DNA of 64,000 bases from Candidatus Latescibacterota bacterium (GCA_965223905.1 CBDCXV010000010.1:992001-1056000), one strand, 5' to 3'. Positions 8,587-46,439 are shown, counted from the stretch's first letter. Made by a program: numbers and translations. The notes: a model not told the origin generated them from the letters alone.

Positions 8587-10968
8587 CCGGATTTCGGTAA
8601 CCCTCTCGTAGCTTTCAATTCATTTGGGTGTAGCCTCCATCCAATCCGTTTGGAGGTGAAAGATTGAGACTGGTTTCGTGTCAAACTACGCAGGGCGAAA
8701 AAGCGCTGACTTCGCATTCGGGGTTGGCCTTGATCGGCGCCTTGATGGGACGCACGCGCTTGGCAGCGCGGGTTGGTGAAATCACCTTGCCGGAGGGACC
8801 CCAGCCCGACATCCCTCACGGCGACGTGATGACGTCGATGATCGGCTTGCTGGCGCTGGGCAAGCCGGATTTCGAAGCGGCGGAAGCGTTTCGCACCGAT
8901 CCCTTCTTCGCCCGGGCGCTGGGCCTGAATGCGGTGCCGTCGGCGGCCACCCTGCCGGCAGCGGCTCGAATGGCTTGGCCGGACAGGTGGAAAGCGCGAT
9001 TCGAGAGGAGTCGGCCGACCTGGTGGCCCGTCGCGCACGGCCGATCACGCCCTGTTACGAAGTCGCCGACGGGCGCTACGGTCCCTGGATGGCGCTCGAT
9101 ATCGACGTGTCGGTGTTCGACAATTCGGACACCCAGAAACAAGGGGTGTCGTGGACCTACAAGAAGGTCGGCGGCTTTGCCCCGATCTTCGCCTACCTGG
9201 GTCAGGAAGTGTATCTGCTCAACGGCCAGTTGCGCGAAGGCAGCCGGCATTCCCAGGAAGGGACCCCGGACTTTATTCGAGACACGCTGCGGCTGGCGCG
9301 CATGGACAGCGTTCATGACGACATCGCCACCGTACGGCGGTTGCGCCGCACGCCCAAGACCGACTTTATCGTCGAGCGCAACCTGCGCATCGAATCGAAG
9401 CAGACCTGGCTCGAGGAGGCCCTCGAAGAGCGCGGGCAGCGACCCGACGAGCTGGTCGCCGACACCGCCTTCGGCTCCGGCGACAATGCCATCAACGCCG
9501 AACGCCTGGGCACCGAGTTGGTCAGCCCGGTCAAAGGCCCCCAGGTCGACGTCGAGGAGCGGCCCGATACGGTGACCGAGGCCGACTTCCTCGTCGATGC
9601 CCGTCTCCGGGATCCGGCCATCTGCCCGGCCGGATACTTGGCCCGGGAGCAGACGCCGTGTGAAGGCAGGTCCCATCATGTGGCCCTGACCTTCGAGCGC
9701 GCCGGCTGTGAGAGCTGCGCCCTGCTTGCGGTTTGTCCGGTGCGGTTGAACCAGGACGGGGACGGCTACGCCGTGACCGTGGACCTGAAAGCCGTCAACC
9801 TCGAACGCCGCCGCCGCGCCATGGCCAGCGGCGCCTTCCGGGAGCGCTATCGTATTCGCGCCGGCATCGAGGCCACGGTTTCGGAGCTGAAACGAAGACA
9901 CGGGCTGGGCGCCCTGCGCGTGCGCGGGCGTTGGCGCGTGGAGTTGGCCGTCTACCTGAAAGCGCTGGCCTGCAATATCAAGAGAATGGTGCGGGCGCTT
10001 GCGCCCAAATCCGGAGCCTGGAACCCGGCAAGGGGCTGAAAAGGGGCGGGGGACGCATTCGGCGCCGAAAAAAGGCCCTGCAAGCCCCGATTCGGGCTAA
10101 CGCGCCGATAGAGCGCTGAGGCCGCTTCAACGCAGCGCATCCCCGATTCTTTTCATAGTGGTGAAACTTAAGTTTCAAGCAAAATCTCTGTCTGTGAAAG
10201 CGGGGTTTTTACGGGGGAGTCAAGGAAATCTTCACCGGCTCGCGGGTAGAGGAACGAAAGGAAGTCTTCGAACGGATCGTTTCCGAGGTCGTGCTGCGCA
10301 GGATCAGCGCCGAGGGGCAGGCGCTGCGTGATCCCCGAGATCGAGTACGGACCTGGTGGACGAACCTGGGCAGCGCCCCCCGAGGACGTGATCCGCCTCT
10401 ACCGCGAGCACAGCACCTGCGAGAAATTCCACTCCGAGTTGAAGACGGACATGGATCTGGAACGCCTGCCCTCGGTCAAGTTCGCCACCAATGCCCCGGT
10501 GCTGCTGCTGGGCATGATGGCCTACAACGGCCTGCGCCTGTGCGACCAGGCGAGCCTGCCCCAAGAGCGCCATCTGCCCCCCCGAAATGGTGGCTCTTCG
10601 TAAAAGGCCGGCCGTCCGCCGTCTCCGCACCGTCATTCTGGATCTCATGTACCAAGTCGCCCGCTGGGTCCGCCATGAGCGCGGTTTCGGGCTGAGCTTC
10701 GGGTATTTCAACCCCTGGTTCGATGTCTGGAGGCGGACCTACCTTTGGGTGTGTGCATATGAAGGGAGCGATCTCACCGGCGCCCTCGAATTTCGTGCCT
10801 GCGTAGGGATCGGTATGCCTGCTGTGACAATTCCTGCCAACCTGAAGAGGGCGGAAGTTTCAACGGTGACGGCCTCTTGGAAACGCCCCGAATCATGGGT
10901 TGACAAATACAGGATTAGCATAAATATCAAACTTGACCATTTGCTATAGGAACGTTAACGGACTCAGG
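8587..10968 (+). mobile_element. IS1380-family element, frameshifted and interrupted by an IS1182-like fragment
   Basis: IRs CCGGATTTCGGTAAC (8587) and rc CCTGAGTCCGTTAAC (10968); LTSHSGLALIG, LDIDVSVFDNS..KQGVSWTYKK, LYREHSTCEKFHSELKTDMDLERLPS, RRLRTVILDLMY. Confidence 0.8.
9421..10221 (+). mobile_element. 3' half of an IS1182/IS5-like element
   Basis: ELVADTAFGSGDN, CPAG..C..CALLAVC, YRIRAGIEATVSELKRRHGL, ACNIKR; end-like sequence GGGTTTTTACGGGGGAGTC near 10203-10221; left junction approximate. Confidence 0.65.
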
Positions 10969-10974
10969 CGTTAA

Positions 10975-11901
10975 GTCACCCTGCAGTTGTAGTTTGAGCA
11001 TATAAAGAAATACCCTGCAGGTTTTCGGGTTCGTTGGTATCTTGGGATTGGTTGTGTGTTGCAGATTTCTCTAGATTCTGGCGACCCCATGAAAAGAAAC
11101 CCATCAGGCTCCGATATCCGACAGCGACTTGCGCAAGCGCATTGTCCAGCTTGAGCAGATCGTGGAACAACAGGAGGCGCGCATCGTCGAGCTGAACCAG
11201 GAATTTGCCCGCCGCAAGGGAGAGCAAGCGCAACATCCAGGCGCTGTTTTCCCACGCCTTCGGCCTCGAGGTGTCGCTGGTGCCGTAAGCCGACTGGAAC
11301 AGGAGGTGGCCGCGGCCCTGGCGGGTCCGGGCGAGGAGGCGCGCGCCTTCGTTCGCCGACGGGCCCATAGTCAACGTCGACAAGACCGCTGTCGGCAGCG
11401 CCGCGCCAGGGCCTGTTTGTGGACCGCGGTGACGGAGGGCCTCTCGGTGTTCGCCATTCGAAAAATCCGGGGACGGGGTCGATGAGGTGCTGGGTGCGGA
11501 TAACCGGGCGGTGGTCGGCTCCGATCACTATTCGGCCTACGGGCATCTGCCGCTTCGACGCCGGCAAGTGTGCTGGGCTCATCTGGGGCGCACCTTCCAG
11601 GTCTACGTCAGCGGCTTGCGTTGGCGGTTTCATAATTACTTGGGGAATGGGCATCAGTTCGACGACGCCCGCACGGTGGCCACCTGCGCTAACCTCCTCG
11701 ACCTCGGGCCGGCCTTGCGGACCTTCGTGCGCAGAGAAGGCGTCGAGCCGACCAACAACGACCCCGAACGAGCCCTTCGTCATCGGGTGTTGTGGCGTCA
11801 CACCAAGCTTCGGCACCCACAGTGCCCAAGGCAGGCGCTTCCTAGAGCGCTGCTCACGGTGCGCGATACCCTGCGCCAGCAACAGCGGAACTTCCTCACC
11901 T
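10975..11901 (+). mobile_element. IS66-family element, 5' part (pseudogene)
   Basis: IR GTCACCCTGCAG; SDHYSAYGHL..RQVCWAHL and VEPTNNDPERALRHRVLWR motifs; several frameshifts. Confidence 0.75.
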
Positions 11902-12079
11902 CAGTAGTGTCCCGTTGTTGTCTGAAGATTTTTCCGTAAAGCATTAATTTCGTTGATGTTACAGCATTTTGTGAGTTGAATCGACCTGAAATCGTCTCGT
12001 TATTTGGGCCCTCCCCTTGCCCGCCTTTCGACAATGCGTTCAGCGGTACCGGGGCCATTACAAGGTGCAACGGTTCTCC
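11902..12079 (+). mobile_element. IS4-family (DUF4372-type) left end and N-terminal fragment
   Basis: IR CAGTAGTGTCCCGT; LPLPAFRQCVQRYRGHYKVQRFSC; preceded by target site TCCTCACCT (11893-11901). Confidence 0.75.
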
Positions 12080-12396
12080 TGTACAGAATAGTCCGGCAAC
12101 ATGGTGTACAGTTTCCGGCGAGCGGCTTTACCCAAAGCGTCGGTGATGGTGAGCTGTCGTTCGTCCATGCGACCCCGTCTAAGGGGACCGAACCACACCT
12201 CCCAGACTCCGTCGTCAATGGGTTCCAAGCCGATGGGTTGTTGACGCAAGGCGTTACTGACGGCTACTCGATGGGTCTTCCATCGGATGCCTCCGTTAGT
12301 ACTGACCCGCCGAACTTCCCAGTGCGCAGGGTAGTTGGAGTTGACCCGATTTCGTGGACACTTCATTTCTTGGAGAAAGAAAGGAGATGTCCGACC

Positions 12397-12711
12397 ATGC
12401 CCAAATCACATGGCCCGTATCCGCCGGAATTCCGACAACAGATGGTGGAGCTCGTACGGGCGGGTCGTAGCCCGGAGGCGCTGGCCAAGGAATTCGAGCC
12501 GTCCGGGCAGACGATCCGCAACTGGGTGATCCAGGCCGAACGCGATGAGGGGGTGCGCCGCGACGGGCCGAGCCGCCCGGAGCAGGAGGAGCTGCGGCGG
12601 CTCCGCCGTGAGAACAAGCAACTGCGTATCGAACGGGGGATCCTGGCAAAAGCCACGGCCTGGTTCGCTCGCGAGGCCGAGTCGGGGTCCGGCCCGTCTA
12701 CGAGTTCATGA
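12397..12711 (+). CDS. IS3 transposase OrfA (HTH plus leucine zipper)
   Basis: MPKSHGPYPPEFRQQMVELVRAG..TIRNWV..ELRRLRRENKQLRIER. Confidence 0.9.
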   Translation: MPKSHGPYPPEFRQQMVELVRAGRSPEALAKEFEPSGQTIRNWVIQAERDEGVRRDGPSRPEQEELRRLRRENKQLRIERGILAKATAWFAREAESGSGPSTSS

Positions 12712-13592
12712 GAGCGCACCAGGCCGACTTTCCGGTGTTCACGATGTGCCGCGTGCTGAAGGTGTCCCCCAGCGGCTACTACGCCTGGTTGAAGCGCCCG
12801 CCGTCGGGTCGCACTCGGGCCGATGCGGTGCTCAAGGCGCGCGTCGAGCAGATCCACCAACGCTCCCGAGGCACTTACGGGGCGCCGAGGATCCGGGCCG
12901 AACTGGCCGAGGAGGGGCGCGGCGTCAGTCGCAAGCGCATCGCCCGATTGATGCTCGAGCTCGGCGTGCGTGGGGTATGCGGGCGGCGCCGGATCTCCAC
13001 GACCCGCCGCAGCCGGCAGGGCCGGGTCGCCTCCGACCTGGTCAACCGGGTGTTTTCGGCCTCGGGCCCGAATCTGCTGTGGGTTGCCGACATCACCTAC
13101 CTGCCCACCGCTTCGGGTTTTTTGTATCTGAGCGTGGTGGTCGACGCCTGGAGCCGCCGGGTGGTGGGCTGGGCCATGGCGAGCCATCTGCGTACGCAGC
13201 TGGTGCTCGACGCCCTTGACATGGCCCTGTACCGGCGTCGCCCCCACTCGGTAATCCACCACTCCGATCACGGCAGTCAGTATACGGCCCTGGCCTTCGG
13301 GCAACGCTGTCGCCAGGCCGGGGTGCGCCCGTCGATGGGATCGGTCGGTGACTGCTACGACAATGCCCTGTGCGAAAGCTTTTTCGCCACGCTGGAAAGG
13401 GAGTTGTTGGATCGTCATCGGTTTGCTACTCATGCCGAGGCCCGGCTAGCTGTTTTCGAGTACCTGGAAGGCGGGTACAATCGCCAGCGGCGGCATTCCG
13501 CCCTGGGACAACGGTCTCCCGTCAACTACGAGAGATATCACCAATCAGAGAGTGTAGATCCAAACGCAAAACTGTCCGTGAAATCGGGGTAA
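12708..13592 (+). CDS. IS3 transposase OrfB (DDE integrase core)
   Basis: WVADITY, HHSDHGSQY, DNALCESFF; ATGA overlap with OrfA. Confidence 0.92.
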   Translation: MRAHQADFPVFTMCRVLKVSPSGYYAWLKRPPSGRTRADAVLKARVEQIHQRSRGTYGAPRIRAELAEEGRGVSRKRIARLMLELGVRGVCGRRRISTTRRSRQGRVASDLVNRVFSASGPNLLWVADITYLPTASGFLYLSVVVDAWSRRVVGWAMASHLRTQLVLDALDMALYRRRPHSVIHHSDHGSQYTALAFGQRCRQAGVRPSMGSVGDCYDNALCESFFATLERELLDRHRFATHAEARLAVFEYLEGGYNRQRRHSALGQRSPVNYERYHQSESVDPNAKLSVKSG

Positions 13593-14639
13593 GCCCAAGT
13601 GTAGGGGCGGCAGCTTTCTGGGAAAAGGACGTGGCGAAGGCTGGTAGAACTCGACCGGAGGTCTTTGTCCCAAGGCCTCGTGGGGTCGTTCCTGGTTGTA
13701 TTCGTGACGGAAGCGGGTAAAGCGGTATTGCTGTCCGAAGCGGGACGCGGCGGGGGGAATCGTCGCCTCCCGCTTGAGCGTGCCATGCATGCGTTCGTGG
13801 CGCCCATTCTGCTGCGGGCAGCCGGGCTGGATGCGCTCGGGCAAGATGCCGAGCCGGATCCACCAGACCGACAGTTGGGAGAGCCGTCCCAGCGCCTGGG
13901 AGGAGGCGAAGGGGGCGCCGTTGTCGGTGCGGAGGATGCGGGGCAGGCCGTAGGTGCGGAAGAGCCGGTGGAAGACCGGCCGGCTCAGTTGCCCCTGGGG
14001 CGCGTCGAGGGCTTGGCACCCCAGCAGGAAGCGGCTGTAGCCGTCGCGACGGTCAGCGGGTAGCAGTAGCGGCCATCCAGGGTCTTGAACTGCCCCTTGA
14101 AGTCGGCGGTCCAGACGTGATTGGGCGCGCTCAGGGGGGTCTGGGGTGGCCCCGCAGAGCCCGGCCGGCGCCGCGTCCGCGGCGTCGGCACCAGGCCATG
14201 GCGTTTGAGGATGTCGCAGACGGTGTGCGTGCCGGCCAGGGGCGATGCGGCTGCGATCGCCAGAGGAGAGCCAGCAGCTTCTTGGCCCCCCACGTCGGGT
14301 GTGTGCGGCGCGCCCGAGAATCGCCTCTACGAGGTCGGAAGACGTAGCGTGCGGGCAACGGACCGGTCTACGCGACTGCGCCATCAAGCCGGCAGCGCCT
14401 GTGTCGACATACCGCTGCACCCACTTGTAGCCGGTGGGACGGCTGATGCCGTAGCGACGGCACAGCTCGGAAAAGGGGAAGTAGTCCTCGAGGTAATCGG
14501 CGATGAAATGCATTCGTTGGTCCATGGCTGAGGTTTCGTTCCAGGGCATGTGAGCACCTCCTTGAGGTGCCCAAAGGTGGGCGAAACTGTAAACCATGTA
14601 CCTGGACTGATCTGTAAAACCATGTACCTGGACCGTACC

Positions 14640-14745
14640 CTCGCTGAGCGAATCGGCCTAAGGAGCAGCAGATACAGCGTTACGAGGCCACCGACAACGC
14701 TTCGGCCAGTCTGTCCCGGATCAGAGAGGTCGATAGTGGGTTGAG
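14640..14745 (+). pseudogene. XRE-type HTH regulator fragment truncated by IS481
   Basis: LAERIGL then frameshift to KEQQIQRYEATDNASASLSRIREV. Confidence 0.5.
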
Positions 14746-15068
14746 CGCGGAGACCGTCCAGCAGGACAAGGATTAGAGTGTCAGGGCCCTGCCGACCCAC
14801 CTCGAGGCCGTGCAAACGGTGATCCGCGACGCAAGGCTCTAAAATGTACAGGGCCCAGAAATTGGGAAAGCTCGATCTGGGACCCAAGCGACCTCAGCAC
14901 GCTATTCCGCCCTTACCTGGGAGGTGCCACTAGGAGGCAAACGCAGGCGGTCATCGCGGACACTGTGTTGTTTTTTCGATTAGGTTAGTTAGGATACAAT
15001 CGCATGTTTTCCTCAGATCAAGGACATTTCCGCGATATGGAAATGCATGCATCAAGGCAGGAAGGAAT

Positions 15069-15330
15069 GTGTGGAGGAGCATTGGCTTCGTTCATTTATC
15101 GGACATTCACTTCGGGCAAGAAAGGGGCGGAAGGATCCGAATCCACCAGGACGTCAAGGACCGTCTTATCGAGGAGTGAGATGAGTTGTAAAAACTTTGG
15201 AGTCCGGCCATTCCGCAGGCATCATTTTTACAGGTGACATCGCATTTGGAGGACGTGAATGCGAATCCAGGGCAGCGGCTGATTGGCTCGACAAGGTTGC
15301 AGACGCAGCCGGTTGTTCTATACAGTACTC
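15069..15330 (+). pseudogene. Calcineurin-like metallophosphoesterase N-terminal relic
   Basis: FVHLSDIHFGQE (motif I), then after a stop and frameshift IIFTGDIAFGG (motif II); no GNHD motif follows. Confidence 0.6.
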
Positions 15331-15648
15331 TTCTCGAATTCGATCTGGCGCGGGTGATCTGTCGTCAGGAGGAAGATCCGCTCGCAGTCCCTGGCAGCAT
15401 CGGCGGGCGAAGCAGGCTGCGAAAAGTCGCCCACAACGAGTTCAGATCGAGGTCGGTGAACAGGCGGCGCGCACGTTCGACATTGCGAACCATCACCCGA
15501 ACGGGGAAACGGCCACGGCGGTCAGCGAGAATGGAAGCAGGTAGCGGCCCCCAGTGCCTGTGGCGTCGGTGACAAGTACGGTTGCACTCATTTATCACAA
15601 GATAGCGGCCTCGGCGTGGTCAACTCACACCGGCTGGCCCGATGACAC

Positions 15649-17691
15649 CTACTCTAAGATACTGCCGATCTCGAACTGGATGCGCTCTTCAATCTCTCCC
15701 CTGCGCTTCTGCCTATGGTACGTGGCGAGGGCTCTCCTCGCCTCATCTTCCCGGCCCAGCTCGCCGTACAATTTGCTGAGGAACAGGTGCACGCGCGGCC
15801 CGATCAACTCGATTTCGCGCAGCGGCTCGACGTAGGCGAGCGCCTCCTCGTGTCGGCCCATGCGGTACAAAACGGCTCCCAGCTGCCACCTGACGGGATC
15901 TGATTCCGTATCCATGGCGATGGCCTCTCGCAGTAAATCCTCCGCATCGTCGAGCCGACCCTGTTCCTTCAGAATCCGGGCCAGCCGCCACCTCGACTCT
16001 ACGTACCACGTCGAGTCAGTCAGGAGCAGTTCGTATTCCTCCTGGGCAGCATCGTCCAGTCCCTGGATATCGTACATCTGCGCCAGTTGGAACCGCACGC
16101 TGCTGTTGCGGGGTTGCATCTGCAGAGCCTGCCGGTAGGCGTCTATGGCGCCCCGCACGTCACCCGAGAAAAAGCGCGCTTCTCCCAGTCGGGTCAGCAA
16201 ATCCCTTCGCTCATCCTCTTCCTCGCCACCTGCCGCGAGCAGCTGTTCATAGGTCCTGGCCGCCGCTCGCGGTCGCTCCGCCCGCATGAAGTGATGGGCG
16301 AGCGCCCTGTGCGCGGAGCGCAGATCCGGTTCCCGAGATGTGAGTCTCTGTAATAGTCCAATGGATTTCTCGTAGTTCTCCACCTGCTCGTAAAGCGATA
16401 CTAGGGTGAAGTACGTCTCGTTAGATGCCGGTCCCGACTCGACGGCGCGCTCGTATTCGCGAATTGCGTTGGCCCTCATGCCCAAGTTCTGGTAGCCTTT
16501 TCCCAGTACGCGGTGGTGCCGGACTACCGCTTGCGCCCCCAACTCCTTCGCATCCCAGTTGACGACTGCCAGCAGTACGGCGATGAGGCACCCCACAGCC
16601 ACTCCCTGCCTGTCGAACCGCAGTCGAGTGAGTGCGCTCAGACTGACTGCCGCGAACAGGAGCAGCATCGCCACGGCAGGCAGACGTGAGTTTCCGGACA
16701 CCCCGATCCACAGAGCTCCCGCCATCCAGCTCGCGACGAACAGGAGAAGCAGGGTGACCGGTTGACCGCGCTGGGACGAGCGCAGGGTGATGATTACTCC
16801 CAGCACTGCCAGTGGAGCTACGATGCCGAAGGGAAAGGCCACGCCTCGAACCCACATCGACACTGCCAACAACGCGGAACTGCCGCGCGCCTGATACGGA
16901 TCGAGCGTCTCCGTGAACTCAGTACCGTGCCAGAAGCGATAGAATCGGTGGCTGAGCTCCGTGAGGGGCGAGACGCCCTCCGATCCGACCCACGGTGACG
17001 GCATCAGGGCCTGCCAACCCACCCCGGCCGCTGCTGCCAGGAGCACGACACCGCAGCCCACGCCCATCAACCGTGCACCGTGCCCCGCTCCTTTGCCTTT
17101 GTTCATCCACATCCACGCGATAGCGACTACCGCGAAGACCCAATTGCGAGTATCCGCCGCGATCGCCAACCCGAGGACTAACCCGGCCAACCCGAATCGC
17201 ACCCAGTCCTTTCCAACAGCGGCGGCGTTCTTAACGCCGTCGTTGACGCCCGACAGGAGCCACAGGGCGAGCATTCCCAGAAAGACGGTCAGGGCGGCTG
17301 GCAGCAACTCCGTGTCGAAGTAAATGAACGGGCCGTACAGAGCCGCAGCGAATGCCGCGATGATTGCGACTCGGTTGGAGAATACAGTTCGGCCTATATG
17401 CCAGATCAGGACACAGCTGGCGGCGCCCAGCAAGGCCTGCACGAGTCGGGCTGCGGTGTGGCCGTCGCTGAAAAGCTTGAATAAGCCGGCCAGAAGCAGC
17501 GGGTACAATACTGAATCCCCGCTCGCTGCCATTCCCACCGGCCCAGGCGACCCTCCGAATTCGACGACCTGACTCGCATAGCCCCCGCTCGCCAGCATCT
17601 CCGCTTCCACGCCTGGTCCCCTGCTCGTCTGCCAGATGTGGACCAGGCGGGTCCCCAGGGCCAGTAGGCCGAATCCGAGTCCCCACCTCAT
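15649..17691 (-). CDS. GT-C (PMT/GT39-like) membrane glycosyltransferase fused to TPR repeats
   Basis: LYPLLLAGLF..RLVQALLGAASCVLIWHIGR..ALYGPFIYF multi-TM region; C-terminal TPR helices (LGEARFFSGDVRGAIDAYRQALQMQP); ATG 17691 after GGAAGG. Confidence 0.8.
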   Translation of the reverse strand: MRWGLGFGLLALGTRLVHIWQTSRGPGVEAEMLASGGYASQVVEFGGSPGPVGMAASGDSVLYPLLLAGLFKLFSDGHTAARLVQALLGAASCVLIWHIGRTVFSNRVAIIAAFAAALYGPFIYFDTELLPAALTVFLGMLALWLLSGVNDGVKNAAAVGKDWVRFGLAGLVLGLAIAADTRNWVFAVVAIAWMWMNKGKGAGHGARLMGVGCGVVLLAAAAGVGWQALMPSPWVGSEGVSPLTELSHRFYRFWHGTEFTETLDPYQARGSSALLAVSMWVRGVAFPFGIVAPLAVLGVIITLRSSQRGQPVTLLLLFVASWMAGALWIGVSGNSRLPAVAMLLLFAAVSLSALTRLRFDRQGVAVGCLIAVLLAVVNWDAKELGAQAVVRHHRVLGKGYQNLGMRANAIREYERAVESGPASNETYFTLVSLYEQVENYEKSIGLLQRLTSREPDLRSAHRALAHHFMRAERPRAAARTYEQLLAAGGEEEDERRDLLTRLGEARFFSGDVRGAIDAYRQALQMQPRNSSVRFQLAQMYDIQGLDDAAQEEYELLLTDSTWYVESRWRLARILKEQGRLDDAEDLLREAIAMDTESDPVRWQLGAVLYRMGRHEEALAYVEPLREIELIGPRVHLFLSKLYGELGREDEARRALATYHRQKRRGEIEERIQFEIGSILE

Positions 17692-17743
17692 TCTCTGCCT
17701 TCCGATGCCCGGGATTGGCCGCCACCAGCGAATTAAAATTTCA

Positions 17744-19182
17744 GGCTCGTCAGTAGAATTGGTGGGTGAATTGTGGCTCGGGTAAATCGCCAAGCTGATG
17801 AAATGAAGCGATTTGGAGTGCCTTGAAGGTGCGGAATCCGAATGCTTTTCTCACCGTCAGATTCCATTTCAGGTTCAAGCCCTCGACCATGCCGTTGTTG
17901 CTGCTTCCTGGCCCTGAACCAATTGAGGATGAGCTCTTGATGACGCCGCAGCATCCTGGCGATGTCTTTCATCGGTTCGATGTTGCTTCTCATCGTACGG
18001 ACAACACCAGCGCTGGAGAAACTTCTCTGCCCACGCGGGGTAGGTGTAGTTCCAGAAGCGCTGGAAGTCCTCCTTGAGCAGGTAGGCTTTGACCGTCCGC
18101 AGGTTCATCTTCAATAGCTCGGACAGCTTCAAGCCCTGGGGGTCGCTGAGGTTCTCCTTGCGCTTCAGGAAGCACCAGCGGCTCTTGCTCAGGACCGGAT
18201 CCTGGCCCTGTTCTTTGAGTCTGCGGGCCTCTTCGGCACGGACGTTGTCGAGAGCCTTGCTGAAGTGCTGCATGATGTGAAAGCGGTCGAGAATAGGTAC
18301 CGCGCTGGGGAGCCGCTTGCTGATAACGTTGAGGTAGGCTTTCCAGATATCAGAGCAGATGACGGTAATCTGGTCGAGGAAACGGGTCGGCTCCTGCTCG
18401 CCGGCCGCTTCCTGCTTGCGCCGGTGCTCTTGCTCCCGTTCGGTAAAGCCGTCGTTCAAGGCCTTCTTCGTCCGCTTCTCGCCCATCCACAACAGGCGGC
18501 GGCGGTGGGGGTCGATCTGATACAGCAACGTCAGATAATGATGCCCCTTACGATACTGGATTTCATCCACGCCGAGGGCCGTGACCTGGTCGAGGCGGCG
18601 ATGAGCGAGCCCATAGTCCACCACATACTGGACGGAGTGGTACCTTGTCCCAACGGGTCCGGAAGGAACGCGCCACCTCGAGCCACGACAGCTTTTTGGC
18701 CCACTGGGCCAGGAAGCAGCGGTAGAGGTCGGTCAGGTGGTGCTTGCCCGTGCTCCAGGGGACCTTCTCGACGACCACCCGGCCGCAGGCTTTGCAGGCA
18801 ACCCGGCGCATGCCATACACCAGAAAGACCGGGAAACCCCAGAGGGGAACAAACTCGAACAGCCGGGCTTCGGTGGCCGTGTCATAGGTGGGGGCCAAGT
18901 GACCGCAGCCGCGGCACGCGCCCCGGGAATTTTTCCGTGGTCTGATCCGCACCATCACCCTTCCGTGCCGGTCAAAATGACTGCCCTCAAACACAAACCG
19001 CTTGAACGTCGTGCACCGGTTGAGTACCGTGATCAGGCGCATCATTCCCTCCACAGGTAGTTGGGATCGGTCTTGGTGGACTGTCCCAACATACCGGGGA
19101 TGATGCGCCTGTGCTACCTTGGCCTCCTCTATGCCCATCGCCGCAGCGTCCCCTCCTCACCCACAGATTCTCCAGAGGAGCC
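17744..19182 (-). mobile_element. ISL3-family element (1439 bp) with perfect 8-bp target duplication; transposase frameshifted
   Basis: GGCTC...GAGCC ends; AAATTTCA at 17736-17743 and 19183-19190; CxxC zinc finger, GVDEI, CSDIWKAY, LDRFHI, AYLLKEDF; at least 3 frameshifts. Confidence 0.92.
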
Positions 19183-19430
19183 AAATTTCAGCATTAGAGG
19201 AGTCGTTACGGAGATAATATTACCCTCCCAACAGTGAGGCAAGGTCGCTTACCCCGAACGGCGACCGCAGCTGGTGGGACAAGCGCTTCATGCGCGAAGA
19301 ATCGAATTAACAGGGCGACAGGAGTTCAAACCAAGATGAGCTTTCTTGTTACAATGGATCCGGTCTAATTGGATGCCGAGATCTTCCCACACCTGCCCCC
19401 AAACCGGGTCGGGGAGGCGGAAGGCGCTAT

Positions 19431-19560
19431 ATGAATGAGGTCCTGGAGGATGGCTTCGGTAACCGGGCGTCTGCCGATATGCTCGGGCGCTTCGAACTGG
19501 CGTTCGCGGACAAGTTCGGCGTGCCATTCGCCAGCTCACGCAGCTCGGGCTCCGAGACGA
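19431..19560 (+). pseudogene. DegT/DnrJ-like aminotransferase N-terminal fragment
   Basis: EVLEDGF..MLGRFELAFADKFGVPFA..SSGS resembles the family N-terminus; the remainder is absent. Confidence 0.4.
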
Positions 19561-19718
19561 TGTTGTCCTGTCTCCTAGCGATCCGCACAATGGTGACGGA
19601 GATCTTTTGCAAGAACAGAAAGTACCTGCCACAGTTCAAGGTGTGAGGTGTGAGTGACCGCAGCGACAATCTCCGCGACGTTGTCGTTGCTATTGGACAG
19701 CGGCTGCGTAGCACCATA

Positions 19719-20693
19719 TCACGGCCTGAAGTTCTTGACATACGAGTCCAGTTTGTAGAGCTCGCGGTACCCCAGCGACTCGTAGAGCGATACGGCGGCT
19801 GCATTGCCGCTATCGGTCGACAGAATTGCCGCGTCATTCCCGTGTCGTTTCAGTCGATGCAGTGCCTCGACGATGAGAGCCCTTGCCAGGCCCTTCCGTC
19901 GGTGCTCTTCTCGGGTCCCAATCGGGTCGGTCCACCCTTCCTTGAGACCGTTCCACTTCGGCTCCGTCTTGTCGAAAGCGCACCAACAGTACGCCGCATA
20001 AGATCCATCATCGTGTACGGCGGCAAGGTCGAACTCTCTGACATATTCTGTTGCCAGTGTGCGGCTGCGGTAATTTTCAGCGGTCATGGAGTTGCTTCCC
20101 GAGACGTCGTTCGCCATTCCAGCATACGTCTCTGGATCATGTGGTCCGTGCACGATAAAGTACCCCGGCGGGATTGGTGCAGAGGGAATCGCCTCATCGA
20201 GGGGCCGGATCATGCGGAGAGTGGGCGGATTTGTCCTCTCGAAGCCAGACGTCTCCAGGAGCTTGCCGAGATCCGGGTTATCGCGGCGGATTTTCGTGCA
20301 CGCGAGGGTGACCCGTTCGCCTCTTTCATGAGCGATTTCTGCAGCCCGGGCGCTGGCCCAGGCGATTATGTCGTCATACAGGGGTTTTTCTTCCCGATGG
20401 GGATGGACGTAGAACAACAGGCCCCATTTGGACAGAGCGACAAAGGCCACCGCGGTAGGGCGATCACATGCGTCCAACCAGATGCGGCTGTCGCGCTCTA
20501 TGTCCAGTTCCGCCGGCGCCAGATATGATCCCGGTGTGAGGGCCCGCGACAGATGAAAGGGAAGAAACCTGTCCGCTGTTTCGGCTTTACGGCAGCCGAG
20601 AAGCAAACTGACCGCGACCTGCCGGTCAGATGCGGTAGCGCACGGCCTGAATCTATAGGATGCTCGTGTCAAAGGGTGTGGGGCGAGGACCAT
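19719..20693 (-). CDS. GNAT family acetyltransferase (tandem-GNAT type)
   Basis: GWTDPIGTREEHRRKGLARALI...NAAAVSLYESLGY acetyl-CoA binding motif; start uncertain. Confidence 0.8.
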   Translation of the reverse strand: MVLAPHPLTRASYRFRPCATASDRQVAVSLLLGCRKAETADRFLPFHLSRALTPGSYLAPAELDIERDSRIWLDACDRPTAVAFVALSKWGLLFYVHPHREEKPLYDDIIAWASARAAEIAHERGERVTLACTKIRRDNPDLGKLLETSGFERTNPPTLRMIRPLDEAIPSAPIPPGYFIVHGPHDPETYAGMANDVSGSNSMTAENYRSRTLATEYVREFDLAAVHDDGSYAAYCWCAFDKTEPKWNGLKEGWTDPIGTREEHRRKGLARALIVEALHRLKRHGNDAAILSTDSGNAAAVSLYESLGYRELYKLDSYVKNFRP

Positions 20694-20722
20694 ATCGAGT
20701 TCAGCACTACCGAAATTTGGAT

Positions 20723-20872
20723 GTAACCCTTCAGTTCCTTGGCAGCTTGGGGCCGGGGGCGGAATGGTCCCAGGTTGAATTTAACGAATGGCGGAGTGGG
20801 TTGAAGGCGACAGCGAGGGCGCCGGCTGCTGACACACGGCGGCGTGACAGGCCATCCTGAGATAGGTGAGGA
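20723..20872 (-). mobile_element. IS66 3' end, displaced and inverted relative to its 5' part
   Basis: Continues the IS66 frame from 11901 as ..NFLT|YLRMACHAAVCQQPAPSLSP..*; IR GTAACCCTTCAG at 20723 matches 10975 at 10 of 12; rc target site AGGTGAGGA at 20864-20872. Confidence 0.8.
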
Positions 20873-21064
20873 CAGTAGTGTCCCGTCATAAGTCGAATAA
20901 ATTCAATTGGTTACAAGGATGCTCTGATCGTTTTGGAGATGGGCTTCTGTAAGTACCTGTAAAATATCGACTTTCTCGAAAAGCGAAACGGTGAGAATTT
21001 GCAGGATTTCGGAGAGACTGCGGTCGACTTGCAGCTGCTTCTTCACGATGGCCACGAGCACGTA
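20873..21064 (-). mobile_element. IS4-family right end and C-terminal fragment (inverted)
   Basis: IR CAGTAGTGTCCCGT; YVLVAIVKKQLQVDRSLSEILQILTVSLFEK..QLNLFDL*. Confidence 0.8.
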
Positions 21065-22328
21065 CAGTTTCGCCCACCTTTGGGCACCTCAAGGAGGTGC
21101 CCACATGCCCTGGAACGAAACCTCAGCCATGGACCAACGAATGCATTTCATCGCCGATTACCTCGAGGACTACTTCCCCTTTTCCGAGCTGTGCCGTCGC
21201 TACGGCATCAGCCGTCCCACCGGCTACAAGTGGGTGCAGCGGTATGTCGACACAGGCGCTGCCGGCTTGATGGCGCAGTCGCGTAGACCGGTCCGTTGCC
21301 CGCACGCTACGTCTTCCGACCTCGTAGAGGCGATTCTCGGGCGCGCCGCACACACCCGACGTGGGGGGCCAAGAAGCTGCTGGCTCTCCTCTGGCGATCG
21401 CAGCCGCATCGCCCCTGGCCGGCACGCACACCGTCTGCGACATCCTCAAACGCCATGGCCTGGTGCCGACGCCGCGGACGCGGCGCCGGCCGGGCTCTGC
21501 GGGGCCACCCCAGACCCCCCTGAGCGCGCCCAATCACGTCTGGACCGCCGACTTCAAGGGGCAGTTCAAGACCCTGGATGGCCGCTACTGCTACCCGCTG
21601 ACCGTCGCGACGGCTACAGCCGCTTCCTGCTGGGGTGCCAAGCCCTCGACGCGCCCCAGGGGCAACTGAGCCGGCCGGTCTTCCACCGGCTCTTCCGCAC
21701 CTACGGCCTGCCCCGCATCCTCCGCACCGACAACGGCGCCCCCTTCGCCTCCTCCCAGGCGCTGGGACGGCTCTCCCAACTGTCGGTCTGGTGGATCCGG
21801 CTCGGCATCTTGCCCGAGCGCATCCAGCCCGGCTGCCCGCCGCAGAATGGGCGCCACGAACGCATGCATGGCACGCTCAAGCGGGAGGCGACGATTCCCC
21901 CCGCCGCGTCCCGCTTCGGACAGCAATACCGCTTTACCCGCTTCCGTCACGAATACAACCAGGAACGACCCCACGAGGCCTTGGGACAAAGACCTCCGGT
22001 CGAGTTCTACCAGCCTTCGCCACGTCCTTTTCCCAGAAAGCTGCCGCCCCTACACTACCCTGCGCACTGGGAAGTTCGGCGGGTCAGTACTAACGGAGGC
22101 ATCCGATGGAAGACCCATCGAGTAGCCGTCAGTAACGCCTTGCGTCAACAACCCATCGGCTTGGAACCCATTGACGACGGGGTCTGGGAGGTGTGGTTCG
22201 GTCCCCTCAGACTGGGTCGCATGGACGAACGACAGCTCACCATCACCGACGCTTTGGGTAAAGCCGCTCGCCGGAAACTGTACACCATGTTGCCGGACTA
22301 TTCTGTACAGGATGTACCCGACCGCTCG
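21062..22328 (+). mobile_element. IS481-family element copy B (left end truncated)
   Basis: Near-identical to copy A in inverted orientation; ORF from ATG 21105 with the same three single-base deletions. Confidence 0.9.
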
Positions 22329-22374
22329 CGTTGCCTGCCGCCTTCCATCCTCCAACCGGGTTAAAAGAGAAGGA

Positions 22375-24249
22375 TCAGTCTTTCCTCACGGGAAGCTCGA
22401 CGAAGCTGGCCGCCCCGCGGTCGTGGTGGATGGCGTGGGTCGCCTTGCGGAAGTCCCCCGGCCGTGCCCAGGCGATCTCCTCCACGAAGGTCTGCGGGTT
22501 GCGGTCGTAGACCGGGAACCACGAGCTCTGCACCTGCACGAGGATGCGGTGCCCGGGCAGGAAGGTGTGGTTCACGTGGGGCATGGTTATGCGGTAGGGC
22601 AGCACCTGCCCGGGCGGGATCGGCCCCGCCTTCTCGAAGCTCTCGCGGTAGCGGCCGCGCAGGATGTCGCCGGAGATCATCAGCTGGTAGCCGCCCATTG
22701 CCGGCTCTGCCGGGACCTCGTCGGGGTAGAGGTCGATGAGCTTGACGACCCAGTCGGCGTCGGTGCCGGTGGTCGAGGCGAAGAGCGTCGCCGACGGCTC
22801 GCCGCTCAGGGTGAGGGGCTCCCGCAGGCGCGCGCCGGCGAAGACGAGCACGTCGGTGCGGTCGGAGAAGGGCCGCTGATCGTCGACCAGCCACCGGGAC
22901 CAGGTCGACTCCCCGCCGAAAGCCGTGGGGATCGGGCGCACCCGGTAGGGCACCGGCTTGGCCGGGTCCGAGACGTACTCGGTGCGGCTGTCCCCGGCCC
23001 GGGGGGCCTTGAAGGAGAGGTCCCCCTCAGGCTGCAGGTAGAGCCGGCGGGATTCCGTCTCCTTCACCGGCGGCCAGCTCGAGTACTGCCGCCAGCGGTT
23101 GGCGCCGGTCTCGAAGGCGAGCACCCGCGGCAGCGGCTCGGCCGGCCTCCTTCTCTTGAGGTGGTGGTCCCAGAAGGGCTTGAGCATCTCGCGGCGGAAG
23201 CGCAGGGAGGTGTCCTCCCCCCACTTCAGGCTCCCGAGCTCCGATCCTTCCTTGCTCATCTGTCCGTGGGCCCAGGGCCCGATTGCCAGGTGCGTGCGCG
23301 TGCCCCTGCGGTCGCTGCGGGCCATGGCCTCGTGGCTGAGCACGGGGCCGTAGAGGTCCTCGGCGTCGAACAGGCTGTGCACGGTGAGCACGGGGACCCG
23401 CCGTGGCGCCCGGGCCAGCTGCTCCTGCAGGGCCTGGTCCTTCCAGTAGTCGTCGTAGGCAGGATGCGCCAGGAGGCGCTTCCAGGCCGGCAGCCGGTCG
23501 GCCCCGTAGCGGCGCCCCAGCTCGCCGATGGAACCGGCCTCGAGCACGGCCTGGTAGTTGTCGTAGCAGCCCCATGGGACGGAGCGGCTGGCCTCGCGGG
23601 ACGAGGTCTGCCGGTATACGTACTGCAGCATGACGGTGCGAAAGGCCCCGTGCCGGTAGAAGTCGTCCCCGAGCCAGGAGTCGACCATGGCGTTGACGGG
23701 GACCGCGGCCTTCAGCGCCGGGTGCGGGTCGAGGAGCGCCATCAGGGTGAGCAGGCCGTCGTAGGAAGCGCCGGTGATGCCGACGCGGCCGTTGTTCCCC
23801 TCGACGTTCTCCACCAGCCACTCGACGGTGTCCCAGGCGTCGGTGACCTGGTCGATCCCGCTCTCGTTGAAGGGTCCGCGCACCGGCATGGTCATGGTGT
23901 ATCGGCCCCTGGAGCCGAAGCGGCCGCGCACGTCCTGGTAGACGCGGATGTAACCGTCGCGCACGAGGGCCTCGTCGGCGGCGGGCAGGACCATGGCAAT
24001 GTCGGGGCTGTGGCTGCGCGAGGCGCGGTTCTTGGCGTTGTAGGGGGTCCGCGTCAGCACGACCGGCATCTTCCCCGCCGCGCCCTCCGGAATCAGGATC
24101 AGCGTGAACAGTTTCACGCCGTCGCGCATGGGCACCATCGACTCGAGGCGCTTGTAGTTGAAGGCCCCGGTCCTCGACTCGAAGGTGCGGGGAACGTCTC
24201 CCCCGCGGGTCACGTCACGCGACCCGGACCTGCTCTTGCGTTTGGCCAT
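22375..24249 (-). CDS. CocE/NonD family serine hydrolase (alpha-amino acid ester hydrolase-like)
   Basis: VPMRDGVKL, LTRTPY, QDVRGRFGS, GASYDG nucleophile elbow, GPWAHG, HRILVQVQSSWFP. Confidence 0.92.
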   Translation of the reverse strand: MAKRKSRSGSRDVTRGGDVPRTFESRTGAFNYKRLESMVPMRDGVKLFTLILIPEGAAGKMPVVLTRTPYNAKNRASRSHSPDIAMVLPAADEALVRDGYIRVYQDVRGRFGSRGRYTMTMPVRGPFNESGIDQVTDAWDTVEWLVENVEGNNGRVGITGASYDGLLTLMALLDPHPALKAAVPVNAMVDSWLGDDFYRHGAFRTVMLQYVYRQTSSREASRSVPWGCYDNYQAVLEAGSIGELGRRYGADRLPAWKRLLAHPAYDDYWKDQALQEQLARAPRRVPVLTVHSLFDAEDLYGPVLSHEAMARSDRRGTRTHLAIGPWAHGQMSKEGSELGSLKWGEDTSLRFRREMLKPFWDHHLKRRRPAEPLPRVLAFETGANRWRQYSSWPPVKETESRRLYLQPEGDLSFKAPRAGDSRTEYVSDPAKPVPYRVRPIPTAFGGESTWSRWLVDDQRPFSDRTDVLVFAGARLREPLTLSGEPSATLFASTTGTDADWVVKLIDLYPDEVPAEPAMGGYQLMISGDILRGRYRESFEKAGPIPPGQVLPYRITMPHVNHTFLPGHRILVQVQSSWFPVYDRNPQTFVEEIAWARPGDFRKATHAIHHDRGAASFVELPVRKD

Positions 24250-24571
24250 GGAGTTTCCTGGGCGTTTGCAGCGAAAGGTTCTGGTTATTGGCTGAAAGAC
24301 TGACGCAGCGCTAATCCGGGCTCTGGAACGGAGGGATTCGCAATGCCCCCATCTTTCCACAGTCCATCGCTTCATGCCGACAGTCCGTGCGCTTCCGGTT
24401 GAAAGATACGGGTGCAGGGTCCGGTTTCATCGCGGGGTCCTTATTTTGCAGAGTGATTCCGTTGCACCCGGGCTCTTGCTGGACCGGGGCGACTTCCCCC
24501 AGACCCCAGATGCCAAGGCCTGGTAACGGAGCCGATTCCCTGTTTGGAAAACGGATGGATGGAGGTGCGCT

Positions 24572-37124: not shown

Positions 37125-38238
37125 GGGGCGCGCGCCACTCAGACGATTCCCCAGCTCACCCGCCCCAGCTCGCGCGAACGCTCCCCCTCGTACGCCGGAT
37201 CGATGTCGAACTCGCGATCAAGCCACAGCACCCCGTTGCCCGGGACTCAGCGAATCGAGGGCAGGTGATCCCGCCGTTCCGGCTCTGGTGGGCTATCCGG
37301 GTAGACGCTGGGGGGCGCGATGGCGGAACGGGGGCGTTCAGGCCCGTCTGCGAACCGGCTGCAGGGTTGCCTGCCGTGGGGTTTTCCGGGTCCTCTTTGG
37401 CTCTTTGTGGGGACACGGTGTCGAGCTGGTCTCGGGGCAACCGAGCGAAGGAGGGCACGGGAAAGGTCTGCGTGAGGACCCGGTGCCTCAGTTCGTGCCA
37501 GCGCCCGCACTTGAAGGCGGCGCGCAAATGCATCAGGTCGGCGACGGTTTCGGTGGCCCAGAACGTGCTGGGGGCTTTGAAGCGCAGGTTGATGACCCGG
37601 CGGATGGCGCTCTCCACAGGCCCCGATCCCACCGGCACCTTCCGACGAGTCAGCTTGACGTAGGCCATGCGATGCGTGGTGTCGTTCGAAGTAGTCGATG
37701 GCCGTGTTCATCTTCCGACCCCGCCGGCCGCGCGCTTCGGCTTGGAGGGCTTCGATGACCTTGTGGACGCCGTCCGCATCGCGACGCAGCACGTGACGCA
37801 GCCTTTCGTACTGCTGCCGGCGCTCCGAGGCGTTGCGATCCCGACCCAACTCGATGGCGTCGTGCAGGTGCTCGCTGGCGTGGTAGAAGTCGACCCCCTC
37901 GACCCAGCGCCGGGTGGGGATCTCGGCTTCCTGACGGATCTGGTCGCTGCGCTCCCAGATCCACTCCGCGCCGTCGGCGATGAACACCCCCCTCTGGGCG
38001 TGGGCGGCGCCCAGCAGGCGCAGATAGCCGATGATCAGCGCCCTGGTCGCCTCGGCATCCTCCAGCAGGGTGTCGTACAGAGGCCGCCGTAGCGGGTCGG
38101 CCTGGCCGTTGCGGTCGAGCACGTCGATCAACAGCACGCGCGGTTCCCGCCAGGGCGTGTCGAACCGGTGGCGTCCCTTCTTCGTCCTGCGACCCGGGCG
38201 CGGCGACCGGGTGCGCACCCGCCCTCCGTCGATGCTGA
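37125..38238 (-). mobile_element. ISKra4/ISLre2-like transposase 3' part (pseudogene)
   Basis: SIDGGRVR, FIADGAEWIW, VDFYHASEHL, VGSGPVESAIRRVINLRFK; frameshift near 37670; 5' part absent. Confidence 0.75.
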
Positions 38239-39212
38239 CCCGGCGCAGGAGATCAAGGCCCTACGGGCCTATTTGCGGCACCGAGAGCGCCTGGTGGAGT
38301 ATGCCGCCGCCCACATTCAGCATATGCAAAAAGCGCTGATGCAAATGAACATTCAGGTGCACCACGTCCTATCCGACATCACCGGTGCGACCGGGATGGC
38401 CATTCTTCGTGCCCTCGTGGCCGGGAATCACGACCCGAAAAAGGTGGCCCTGTTTCGCGATGTCCGCTGCAAGGCTTCCGCCGAGACCGTCCAGGCAGCG
38501 CTGACGGGTCACTACCGACCGGAACATCTGTTTGCTCTGCGCCAGGCCCTTGAGCGGTACGACAGCTACCAGGCGAAGGTGAAAGAGTGTGATCACGCCA
38601 TCGAGGCTGCCTTACTCGCTCTCCATCAAGACACTGGAGAAGAAGAGTTGCCTCCTGCTCGACATAAGACGCGTCAGGCGAACGAGCCCAACTTCAATGT
38701 GAGAGCAGCCTTGTTTGGCGTGCTGGGCACCGACTTGACCCAGCTGCATGGATTCGGACCCAACACCGCACTCAAGCTCGTGGGTGAGTGTGGCACGGAT
38801 ATGACCCGGTGGCCCACGGCCAAGCATTTCACCTCATGGCTCACCTTGTCACCCGGAAGTAAGAAATCTGGGGGCAAGGTCCTCAGCTCCAAAACCTGCC
38901 CGTCATCAAGCCGCGCGGCCAAAATACTCCGCCTGGCTGCGGTCAATGTGGGCAAGACGAGTACTGCTCTTGGGGCGTTTTATCGCCGATTGGCATCTCG
39001 AATCGGTGAAGCCAAGGCGGTAACCGCGACAGCACGTAAACTGGCCGTACTCTATTACAACGCGCTACGATACGGCATGGCGTACCAGGACCCTGGGGTT
39101 TCGTACTACGAGGAACAGTATCGCCAACGTGTGATCAAGGGGCTCCGCAGACGCGCCAAACAGATGGGATATGAGCTCTCTCAGGTCCACGCTACAGAGG
39201 GAGTTTCTTAGG
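38239..39212 (+). mobile_element. IS110-family transposase, 5'-truncated
   Basis: QKALMQMNIQ..VLSDITGATG, FTSWLTLSP..SGGK, ATARKLAVLYY; the DEDD N-terminus is absent. Confidence 0.85.
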
Positions 39213-40322
39213 AAAGCCTCCGAGATCCTGGGGATCCCCCTGAACCGGCCCGCCAACGGCGACGACGCATGAGCGCGGCAGTCGAACAGTTGGCGGGTAC
39301 CGTCGGGGTAGTCCCGGCGTGCCGCGCCCTGGGGGTGGCCCGCGCTTCGGTCTATCGGCACCGCACCCCCCCGCGGCCACGCCGGGACGCGGCGCGGCGC
39401 CGTTCGCCTCGCGCCTTGGCCCCGGAAGAGCGCGCCCAAGTGCTGGCTACCCTGCACGAAGACCGTTTCGTCGACCAAGCCCCGGCCGCCGTATACGCGA
39501 ATCTCCTGGAGGAAGGACGCTACCTGTGCTCCCAACGCACGATGTATCGTCTGCTTCACGGCGCCGGCGAGGTGCGGGAACGCCGTCGCCAGCGCCGCCA
39601 CCCTCGGGCCGAACCGCCACGGCTGGTGGCCAGGGCCCCCAACCAGGTCTGGACGTGGGACATCACCCGTCTGGCGGGTCCGCGTAAATGGGGGACGTAT
39701 CCGCTCTACGTGGTGCTCGACCTGTTTTCCCGCTACGTCGTCGCCTGGATGGTGGCCACCCGGGAAAGCGCCGGCGGCGCACAGCGCCTGATCCAGGCCG
39801 CCTGCCGCAAGCAAGCCATCGAGCCGGGGCAGCTGACCCTGCACCAGGACCGGGGCGCGCCGATGACGGCCAAGACCTTCTCGCAGCTGCTGGTCGATCT
39901 CGAGATCCTGGCCAGCTACAGCCGGCCGCGAACCGCCGACGACAACCCCTATTCGGAAAGCCAGTTCAAAACCGTCAAATACGCGCCGACGTACCCGGGC
40001 CGCTTTGCCGACCCGGAGCAGGCGCGAACCTATTTGCGCTCGTTCTTTCTGTGGTACAACACCCAGCATCGCCATAGTGGACTGGGACTGCTGACCCCGG
40101 AAGCAGTACATCAGGGGCGCGCCGAGGAGTTCCAGGCTGCGCGTCAACGCATCCTCGAGGATGCCTGCACACGACATCCCGAACGCTTTGTAAAGGGTCC
40201 TCCTGAGGCGCCGAAAATACCGGCCGAAGTGTGGATCAACCCACCTCCGAAAACCGTCGAATGTGCACGGATAAGACAGTAAACTTTCACGCGAAGTGTC
40301 TCATTTACATTGACACGTTCCG
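39213..40322 (+). mobile_element. IS3-family element with truncated OrfA and intact OrfB (39269..40282)
   Basis: OrfA tail KASEILGIPL; WTWDIT, LHQDRG, DNPYSESQFKT; end-like sequence TGTCTCATTTACATTGACA. Confidence 0.85.
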
Positions 40323-46413: not shown

Positions 46414-46439
46414 GGAGTAGTAAAGGAAGGAGTGACGGA

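Follow-up and report, generated by a model that had tools for sequence, protein, structure and literature searches.

A flipped segment between inverted copies of a dead IS481 core in a Candidatus Latescibacterota genome: probable scar of an illegitimate joining event

In Bordetella pertussis almost all rearrangements are inversions flanked by inverted repeats, mostly IS481, as excerpts of the relevant report state (PMC4888882), and for Drosophila excerpts of another study describe inversions flanked by inverted duplications, together with a model of staggered breaks (Ranz et al. 2007, PMC1885836). The locus described here lies in a window of 64,000 nt (the term denotes the whole stretch of DNA that was analysed) from Candidatus Latescibacterota bacterium (GCA_965223905.1, CBDCXV010000010.1:992001-1056000) and resembles both systems in part. 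A segment of this window, bounded by inverted sequence of an IS481-family element, is inverted relative to its ancestral order, as supported by an interrupted IS66 transposase gene and by an IS4 element inserted in it (Table 1). An earlier note on this DNA had described an inversion between two inverted IS481 copies; our analysis points instead to illegitimate, microhomology-mediated joining, which probably duplicated the core of a single dead IS481 element in inverted orientation and left the inversion as its scar. The flipped stretch of ~9 kb, situated in a cluster of decayed mobile elements, is read as an ordinary rearrangement scar.

The IS66 frame and the IS4 target duplication each preserve the former order, and the inversion is therefore recorded twice. 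Read directly on the plus strand, TCCTCACCT (11893-11901) is followed by the IS4 14-mer CAGTAGTGTCCCGT starting at 11902, and AGGTGAGGA (20864-20872) is followed at 20873 by CAGTAGTGTCCCGT again, likewise on the plus strand. The IS4 ends thus stand beside reverse-complement 9-mers, exactly as the earlier note had it. In the whole window the 14-mer has two exact matches, which are the two IS4 ends, and a third with two mismatches (0.27 expected at up to two mismatches), while the 9-mer has two matches, one per strand and both at IS4 ends (0.59 expected). Because each 9-mer directly adjoins a 14-mer, chance is not a credible explanation for this arrangement. A 9-bp target duplication is typical of IS4-family members, and the terminal repeats of the element are identical at 14/14 bases. 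The IS66 fragment scores 60.8 bits with NCBIfam IS66, for which the whole-protein cut-off is 180, and was aligned by tblastn with two annotated transposases from cyanobacterial plasmids, one of them from Chroococcidiopsis. Residues 213-280 of the IS66 transposases fall on 11279-11458, and residues 283-483/485 of the two references on the plus strand from 11463/11442 to 11918/11912, with residue ~476 at 11901. The match is then taken up on the minus strand, where residues 475/476-497/504 correspond to 20873-20805/20787 (residues 475-497 at 20873-20805 for the Chroococcidiopsis protein), in agreement with the previous statement that the frame broken at 11901 resumes on that strand at 20863.

The inversion was also undone in silico by a script that flips 14592-21062 and takes out the insert plus one 9-mer. 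After this restoration IS66 aligns as a single segment in one frame, residues 283-497, at 102 bits compared with 91.7 bits before. The flip turns the two 9-mers into direct repeats, brings the IS4 ends into inverted-repeat order and, in addition, rebuilds one full-length IS481-family element. The expectation that the flip would restore collinear IS66 and IS4 is hence borne out for IS66 and for the ends and the 9-bp duplication of IS4, but not for a whole IS4 element, of which ~876 nt are missing.

The segment is bounded by an inverted repeat of 1,250 nt (21063-22312 versus 14591-13598 plus 12335-12077), composed of the arms I1, 994 nt in length (13598-14591 with 21063-22056), and I2, 259 nt in length (12077-12335 with 22054-22312). 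The two copies differ by 5 mismatches in 1,250 nt (99.6% identity), two of which lie in 994 nt and three in 256 nt. Pfam domains place the repeated DNA in the IS481 family (LZ_Tnp_IS481 at 29.8-30.1 bits against a cut-off of 22.2, rve_3, HTH_23/28), and NCBIfam IS481 is its best model, with 153.7 bits in two stretches, a score that stays below the cut-off of 224 because of frameshifts. When genome contigs were scanned for the IS481 transposase, 563 of 573 stretches were relatives; among the 120 database proteins listed, one is named IS481 family transposase by its source. Pfam, NCBIfam and the database relatives thereby uphold the family labels previously given to IS4, IS66 and IS481.

In the right copy, intact relatives align in three frames, with frameshifts near 21343, 21430 and 21606; the reading frame is lost over the stretch with the first catalytic Asp motif, and the transposase proper has no open frame. 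All three frameshifts are common to both copies, as none of the five mismatches is an indel. One database protein, P0074 (393 aa), is an intact relative, and P0079 is another decayed relative with a different set of frameshifts. Judging from the sequence, the IS481 element was already dead, probably before its core was duplicated. At 21105-22364, as in the left copy, the gene still reads open over 419 codons in spite of the three frameshifts, because the wrong frames have no stop in this G+C-rich DNA, and it runs past the element end into flanking DNA; a gene caller would therefore report a plausible, non-functional protein.

The ends of the element were derived from the shared blocks of multi-copy relatives in nine pairwise comparisons, and thus from the architecture of those relatives, because the relatives that the scan of genome_contigs gave were all distant (37-61% identity in the best segment) and none was another copy from the same genome. 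The shared blocks measure 1,319 bp (L001/L002), 1,318 bp three times (L055 set), 1,328 and 1,297 bp (L058 set), 1,488 and 1,474 bp (L026/27, L065/68) and 1,258 bp at 86% (L023/24). Six relative loci were inspected for their termini: L001, L002 and L058 have two tandem ~25-nt GGTAC-type units, GGTCCGGGTACATGGTTTACA, at both ends, and L055, L056 and L026 have two tandem terminal units as well, of different sequence. The window sequences 14592-14639 and 22267-22328 show the same tandem-unit architecture as the ends of L001, L002 and L058. Combined, they delimit an element of ~1,314 bp whose ends pair at 45/64 columns, compared with only 29/65 for the ends of the core. The left and the right terminal piece occur once each in the window. 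Each IS481 copy consequently has one genuine terminus, and its other end breaks off 48 or 16 nt before a terminus and passes directly into IS4; neither copy has terminal inverted repeats at both ends. The description of two inverted IS481 copies therefore has to be given up, as the repeats are not complete copies and the whole window holds one left and one right terminus.

The GGTAC-type unit is kept at the DNA level in L001, L002, L058 and the window element, though their transposases are only 41-48% identical. In L055-L059 and L026 the terminal units differ in sequence, and two tandem ~25-nt units stand at each end in this IS481 branch; such units are presumably binding sites for the transposase. 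Coding conservation of the last residues (DYSVQDVP...) was considered and dismissed, since L001 has a stop before them and the conservation is that of terminal units at the DNA level. Transposase cleavage at subterminal units was likewise discarded as a source of the core boundaries, which lie at non-equivalent positions in different units. Target duplications of 3 bp accompany the relatives L001 and L002 (GAC, CCG). Inspection by eye gave nothing convincing of this kind for the restored element, nor were matching bases recognised on the two sides of the core copy at its joins with IS4.

These termini bear directly on the history that the earlier note implied, in which two IS481 copies would have transposed independently and in opposite orientation, one into IS4 and one beside the peptidase gene, before RecA-type recombination inverted the segment. 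The near-identical inverted repeats of 994 and 259 nt that bound the segment, the restoration of the IS66 and IS4 ends by the flip and the precedent of B. pertussis, with its predominance of inversions between inverted IS481 repeats (excerpts of PMC4888882), all agree with it. We nevertheless regard it as very unlikely, given only one set of termini and an IS4-side copy that is short by 48 + 16 nt and would need two extra deletions, each removing an IS end plus IS4 DNA. Furthermore, ~876 nt of IS4 are missing exactly at the position of the core, no target duplication was recognised around the core, and the transposase is frameshifted in both copies. The locus does not show a pair of complete, independent insertions whose target duplications were exchanged by inversion.

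The missing part of IS4 was delimited with 389-aa IS4 relatives (tblastn). Residues 16-40 of P0009/P0011 fall on 12014-12088, with identity only through residue 38 (12082), residues 331-375 of the 389-aa relatives on 21064-20930, and residues 378-389, in another frame, on 20924-20889; the window has no other match to these proteins at E<=0.05. Residues 39-330 are absent. The remnant at 20889-20930 carries a frameshift of its own, its last 12 codons lying in another frame than the preceding 45. For the IS4 tail (last 52 codons, minus strand from 21061) there are 71 database relatives at E<=0.01, many of them 389 aa long with PF01609 and PF14294. The tail shares 81-96% identity with PF01609 proteins 233-389 aa in length, as expected of an IS4-type DDE transposase, and P0009 and P0010 reach 252 and 279 bits on NF033592 IS4 (cut-off 115). 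The protein P0001, a wrong-frame reading of an IS4 relative without a Pfam family, implied a gap of 786 nt, which was set aside in favour of the 876 nt given by the 389-aa relatives in the correct frame.

At the two joins, short stretches can be attributed to both elements. Bases 12077-12082 (TCCTGT) encode the Ser-Cys that follows ...RF in P0009/P0011 and at the same time open the IS481 core, while 21063-21064 complete an IS4 Tyr codon and start the core at its other end; the latter overlap reaches 21066 if IS4 had Met before Tyr, as in its closest relatives P0002, P0010 and P0011. Based on protein relatives of IS4, the joins would thus show ~6 and 2-4 nt of microhomology. Because the core copy inside IS4 is 48 + 16 nt short at its ends, has no recognisable target duplication and replaces ~876 nt of the IS4 interior, we conclude that it did not arrive by transposition. 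The same features make it highly improbable that intramolecular replicative transposition carried IS481 into IS4, duplicating the element in inverted orientation and inverting the DNA between. The topology would fit, as each copy has one original and one new flank, but the new junctions are set back from the termini by 48 and 16 nt, at points of the terminal units that do not correspond to each other, there is no inverted target duplication, the IS4 interior is lost and the transposase gene is not intact. Moreover, copy-out-paste-in rather than cointegrate formation is generally regarded as the mode of IS3- and IS481-type enzymes.

One of the two joins is seen in a second place. The protein P0073 (408 aa, 99% identical), from another contig, ends in ...DYSVQENRCTL, a reading of the IS481 core that continues through the join into IS4, and the left copy minus its IS3 insertion would encode a protein of the same length that differs from P0073 at four residues. 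The IS481-IS4 junction is therefore real, present in an independent contig and older than the IS3 insertion. The IS3-family element itself is flanked by a 3-bp duplication, AGT, at 12333-12335 and 13598-13600, and the repeat arms correspondingly overlap by 3 nt in the right copy. It is seemingly intact, with orfA and orfB (NCBIfam IS3 at 336 bits for orfB; Pfam HTH_Tnp_1 and rve), and its insertion is recent, as it is absent from the near-identical P0073. The pattern of mismatches among left copy, right copy and P0073 does not tell whether a crossover took place. P0073 may represent the same locus in a related strain.

The independent junction invites the idea that a chimera with IS4 ends and an IS481 core was formed elsewhere, was carried into IS66 by IS4 transposase as a non-autonomous derivative of that element, with a 9-bp duplication, and later recombined with a nearby, near-identical IS481. 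Both 14-bp IS4 terminal repeats are kept, intact IS4 relatives are present in the databases, and P0073 displays the same junction in another contig, four amino acids away from the left copy. Such a route is unlikely, since the chimera would have had to land by chance 6.5 kb from an IS481 sharing its three frameshifts at 99.6% identity, whereas the relative P0079 has a different frameshift set and P0073 may stem from the same locus. P0073 also bears on whether the orientation could be an assembly artefact across the 1.25-kb inverted repeat, the true genome being in the restored order. Inverted repeats exceeding the length of short reads are a classic source of false orientation, and the restored order looks tidier. 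An artefact is nonetheless improbable, because the five differing positions and the IS3 insertion make the copies distinguishable, the window is 64 kb of contiguous sequence over several repeats, and both IS4/IS481 junctions would be present in either orientation, with one of them found independently in P0073.

Illegitimate, microhomology-mediated joining remains the explanation that we favour, and it suggests the following history. Ancestrally, an IS66 element with IS4 in its transposase gene (9-bp duplication) would have been followed by the GNAT gene, the ISL3 remnant, the glycosyltransferase-like gene and finally one IS481 of ~1,314 bp, with its three frameshifts, beside the peptidase gene. 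Four break points, one pair spaced by 876 nt in IS4 and another by 1,250 nt in IS481, would then have been joined pairwise at microhomology, either by template switching during replication or break repair, or by end joining after staggered breaks. As a result, ~0.88 kb of IS4 would have been lost and the 1,250-nt core would have come to exist twice, in inverted orientation. Subsequently the copies would have diverged at five positions and the IS3-family element would have entered the left one. With respect to the duplicated core, the locus has the features of a breakpoint with an inverted duplication: one of the original flanks stays with each copy, target duplications were not recognised, and single-copy ancestry and microhomology at the joins, the latter from protein alignments, appear likely. 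Of this reconstruction, the anatomy, the single set of IS481 termini, the gap in IS4 and the frameshifts common to both copies are read from the sequence, and the microhomology, the sequence of events and their enzymology are inferred.

Within this explanation two routes can be envisaged, which the sequence does not separate and each of which is put forward tentatively, with about equal weight. If there was one step, a 3' end in IS4, broken or stalled, could have annealed at TCCTGT on the opposite IS481 strand. Copying backwards, it would have passed through the core and the left terminus and then over ~6.3 kb of unique DNA until it reached the other break in IS4, and a switch at TACA would have returned it to IS481, whereby the present order would result directly. 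Equivalently, staggered breaks at IS481 might have been filled in and end-joined in the manner of the Drosophila model (excerpts of PMC1885836). In two steps, the 3' end would have copied the 1,250-nt core only and rejoined the far side of the IS4 gap, which would have left an inverted core inside IS4, and homologous recombination between this core and the parent element would have flipped the segment later, in line with the earlier note and with the IS481-bounded inversions of B. pertussis (excerpts of PMC4888882). Homologous recombination may have caused the flip without being necessary for it, since a single illegitimate event suffices to give the present order. A more far-reaching possibility, less likely than not, is one microhomology-mediated event of the fold-back or template-switch type: it would have turned ~7.7 kb round, copied 1.25 kb of the dead IS481 and removed 0.88 kb of IS4, and the resulting repeat would now let the segment flip-flop in the population by homologous recombination.

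Several points weigh against the favoured explanation. The microhomologies are read from protein alignments, in which the wobble bases of IS4 are not read. No outgroup with the ancestral order was found in the genome_contigs scan, in which the best relatives have 37-61% protein identity and which does not include the genome of the window, and in the restored order no IS481 target duplication was recognised. P0073 could derive from a second copy of an IS4::IS481 chimera at another site, in which case a mobile chimera would be a better account than an origin in place. To our knowledge, templated insertions or inversions of such size at microhomology are poorly documented in bacteria; a literature search returned papers on Drosophila, human and yeast and one on bacterial in-vitro transposition that is unrelated, and no bacterial counterpart.

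The earlier note had placed a GT-C/TPR glycosyltransferase gene and a GNAT gene in the segment, both of which the Pfam scan recovers (PMT_2/TPR and GNAT, on the minus strand), and had suggested that the segment may still be invertible. Repeats of 994 and 256 nt are adequate substrates for RecA-type exchange, though IS3 separates them in the left copy. Flipping back would thus be physically possible, and nothing in the sequence indicates that it occurs. A programmed switch would be expected to combine a site-specific recombinase nearby with short inverted repeats and a promoter or coding end that changes its partner on flipping; the locus does not show this combination, and no promoter logic was apparent. 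No invertase- or integrase-type recombinase domain was detected inside the segment (Pfam, 26 reading frames, 8664-24375), and the glycosyltransferase-like and GNAT genes, situated well within the segment, would retain their upstream DNA whichever way it is turned, with neighbours unchanged within at least 80-170 bp. Nothing in these data suggests a regulated gene switch, and there is no sign of control over either gene.

The remains of mobile elements are clustered at 8.6-22.4 kb of the window, which has a G+C content of 64% (Table 1). The ISL3-family transposase within the segment is split over two frames, and the C-terminal part of its domain is missing. At 38168-40282, adjacent IS110-type (Transposase_20) and rve-type integrase genes are unrelated in sequence to the IS elements of the inversion. 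Two tandem units of ~2.85 kb at 43234-48827 have a block-by-block identity of 75-98%, and Pfam gives no match for their long reading frames (44492-45880 and 47327-48502). On the minus strand, 50365-54308 is occupied by a Pnkp/Hen1 pair of RNA repair genes (PNKP ligase domain 595 bits, Hen1_L 380 bits), and a WD40 repeat protein of 739 aa is encoded at 54993-57212, its ~126-nt repeats being visible in the DNA as families of direct repeats. Also encoded in the window are glycoside hydrolases, an ECF sigma factor and a protein that carries a type IX secretion sorting domain; together with the RNA repair pair and the WD40 protein, they point to a bacterium of environmental origin.

Table 1. Features in and around the inverted segment, with positions counted from the first letter of the window.
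Feature	Position	Strand	Remarks
IS1380-like transposase, frameshifted	8664-10039		NCBIfam IS1380 in two overlapping frames; directly upstream of the IS66 remnant
IS66-family transposase gene, 3' part	11279-11901	+	Up to the IS4 insertion point; frameshifted further upstream; Pfam DDE_Tnp_IS66, 33 bits
9-bp IS4 target duplication, copy 1 (TCCTCACCT)	11893-11901	+	Read directly
IS4 left end, 14-bp terminal repeat and transposase start	11902-12076	+	Through residue 36; residues 37-38 in the putative microhomology 12077-12082
Left IS481 core copy, right-hand part	12077-12335	-	Repeat I2, 259 nt; ends at junction J1 with IS4; 3 of 5 mismatches
IS3-family insertion sequence, 1,262 bp	12336-13597	+	TG...CA ends; within the left IS481 copy
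Left IS481 core copy, left-hand part (N-terminal two thirds of transposase)	13598-14591	-	Repeat I1; Pfam LZ_Tnp_IS481, rve_3, HTH
Sole true IS481 left terminus, 48 nt, tandem ~25-nt units	14592-14639	-	On the left copy
Unique DNA of the inverted segment	14640-20863		Pfam and NCBIfam
Uncharacterised DNA within the inverted segment	14640-15648		
PMT_2/TPR glycosyltransferase-like gene, apparently whole	15649-17793	-	Pfam; inside the inverted segment
ISL3-family transposase, frameshifted	17875-19138	-	Inside the segment, between the glycosyltransferase-like gene and the GNAT gene
GNAT acetyltransferase gene, apparently whole	19719-20693	-	Pfam; inside the inverted segment
Final 27 codons of the IS66 transposase gene, with the stop	20781-20863	-	tblastn
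9-bp IS4 target duplication, copy 2 (AGGTGAGGA on the plus strand)	20864-20872	-	Read directly
IS4 right end	20873-21062	-	Terminal repeat 20873-20886; last ~58 transposase codons; one frameshift near 20925
Right IS481 core copy, 1,250 nt	21063-22312	+	Transposase ATG at 21105
Sole true IS481 right terminus, 16 nt	22313-22328	+	On the right copy; aligned to the right ends of relatives
S15 peptidase gene, apparently whole	22375-24375	-	Pfam; directly outside the segment

For annotation, the locus advises caution, as inverted "IS copies" that bound an inversion need not have caused it and here would be partly its product. It also offers a datable series, from the entry of IS4 into IS66 through the decay of IS481 and the rearrangement to the five substitutions and the IS3 insertion, and may be a natural bacterial example of microhomology-mediated inverted duplication.

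Among known mechanisms, FoSTeS/MMBIR denotes microhomology-mediated template switching and break-induced replication, and the locus resembles its products in having two joins at 2-6 nt of putative microhomology, an inverted copied stretch and a loss at the break; it gives no direct sign of a replication route over end joining. Compared with bacterial quasipalindrome switches, the scale is large (1.25 kb copied, or 7.7 kb if in one step). As in intramolecular replicative transposition of the IS26/Tn3 type, there is an inverted second copy together with an inversion, and a target duplication is split into reverse-complement halves. Unlike in that process, the flipped 9-bp duplication belongs to IS4, whose ends were not involved, and the IS481 joins lie away from the IS termini, with no duplication recognised at them. 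The inversions of B. pertussis, as excerpts of PMC4888882 present them, are similar in that near-identical IS481-family sequence, inverted and of a length that allows RecA-type exchange, stands at both ends of the segment; they differ in that the repeats here share one set of termini, their other ends being illegitimate joins to a broken IS4. Relative to the Drosophila inversions, as far as excerpts of PMC1885836 describe them, the locus lies on a bacterial chromosome, the piece present twice comes from inside a dead IS, and the other breakpoint has a ~0.88-kb deletion instead of a duplication, with putative microhomology at both joins. As in Drosophila, a breakpoint sequence that was probably single ancestrally is now found on both sides, inverted, with one original neighbour per copy, and if the rearrangement took place in a single event, the locus would be a bacterial counterpart of the Drosophila inversions with inverted duplications (PMC1885836, in excerpt).

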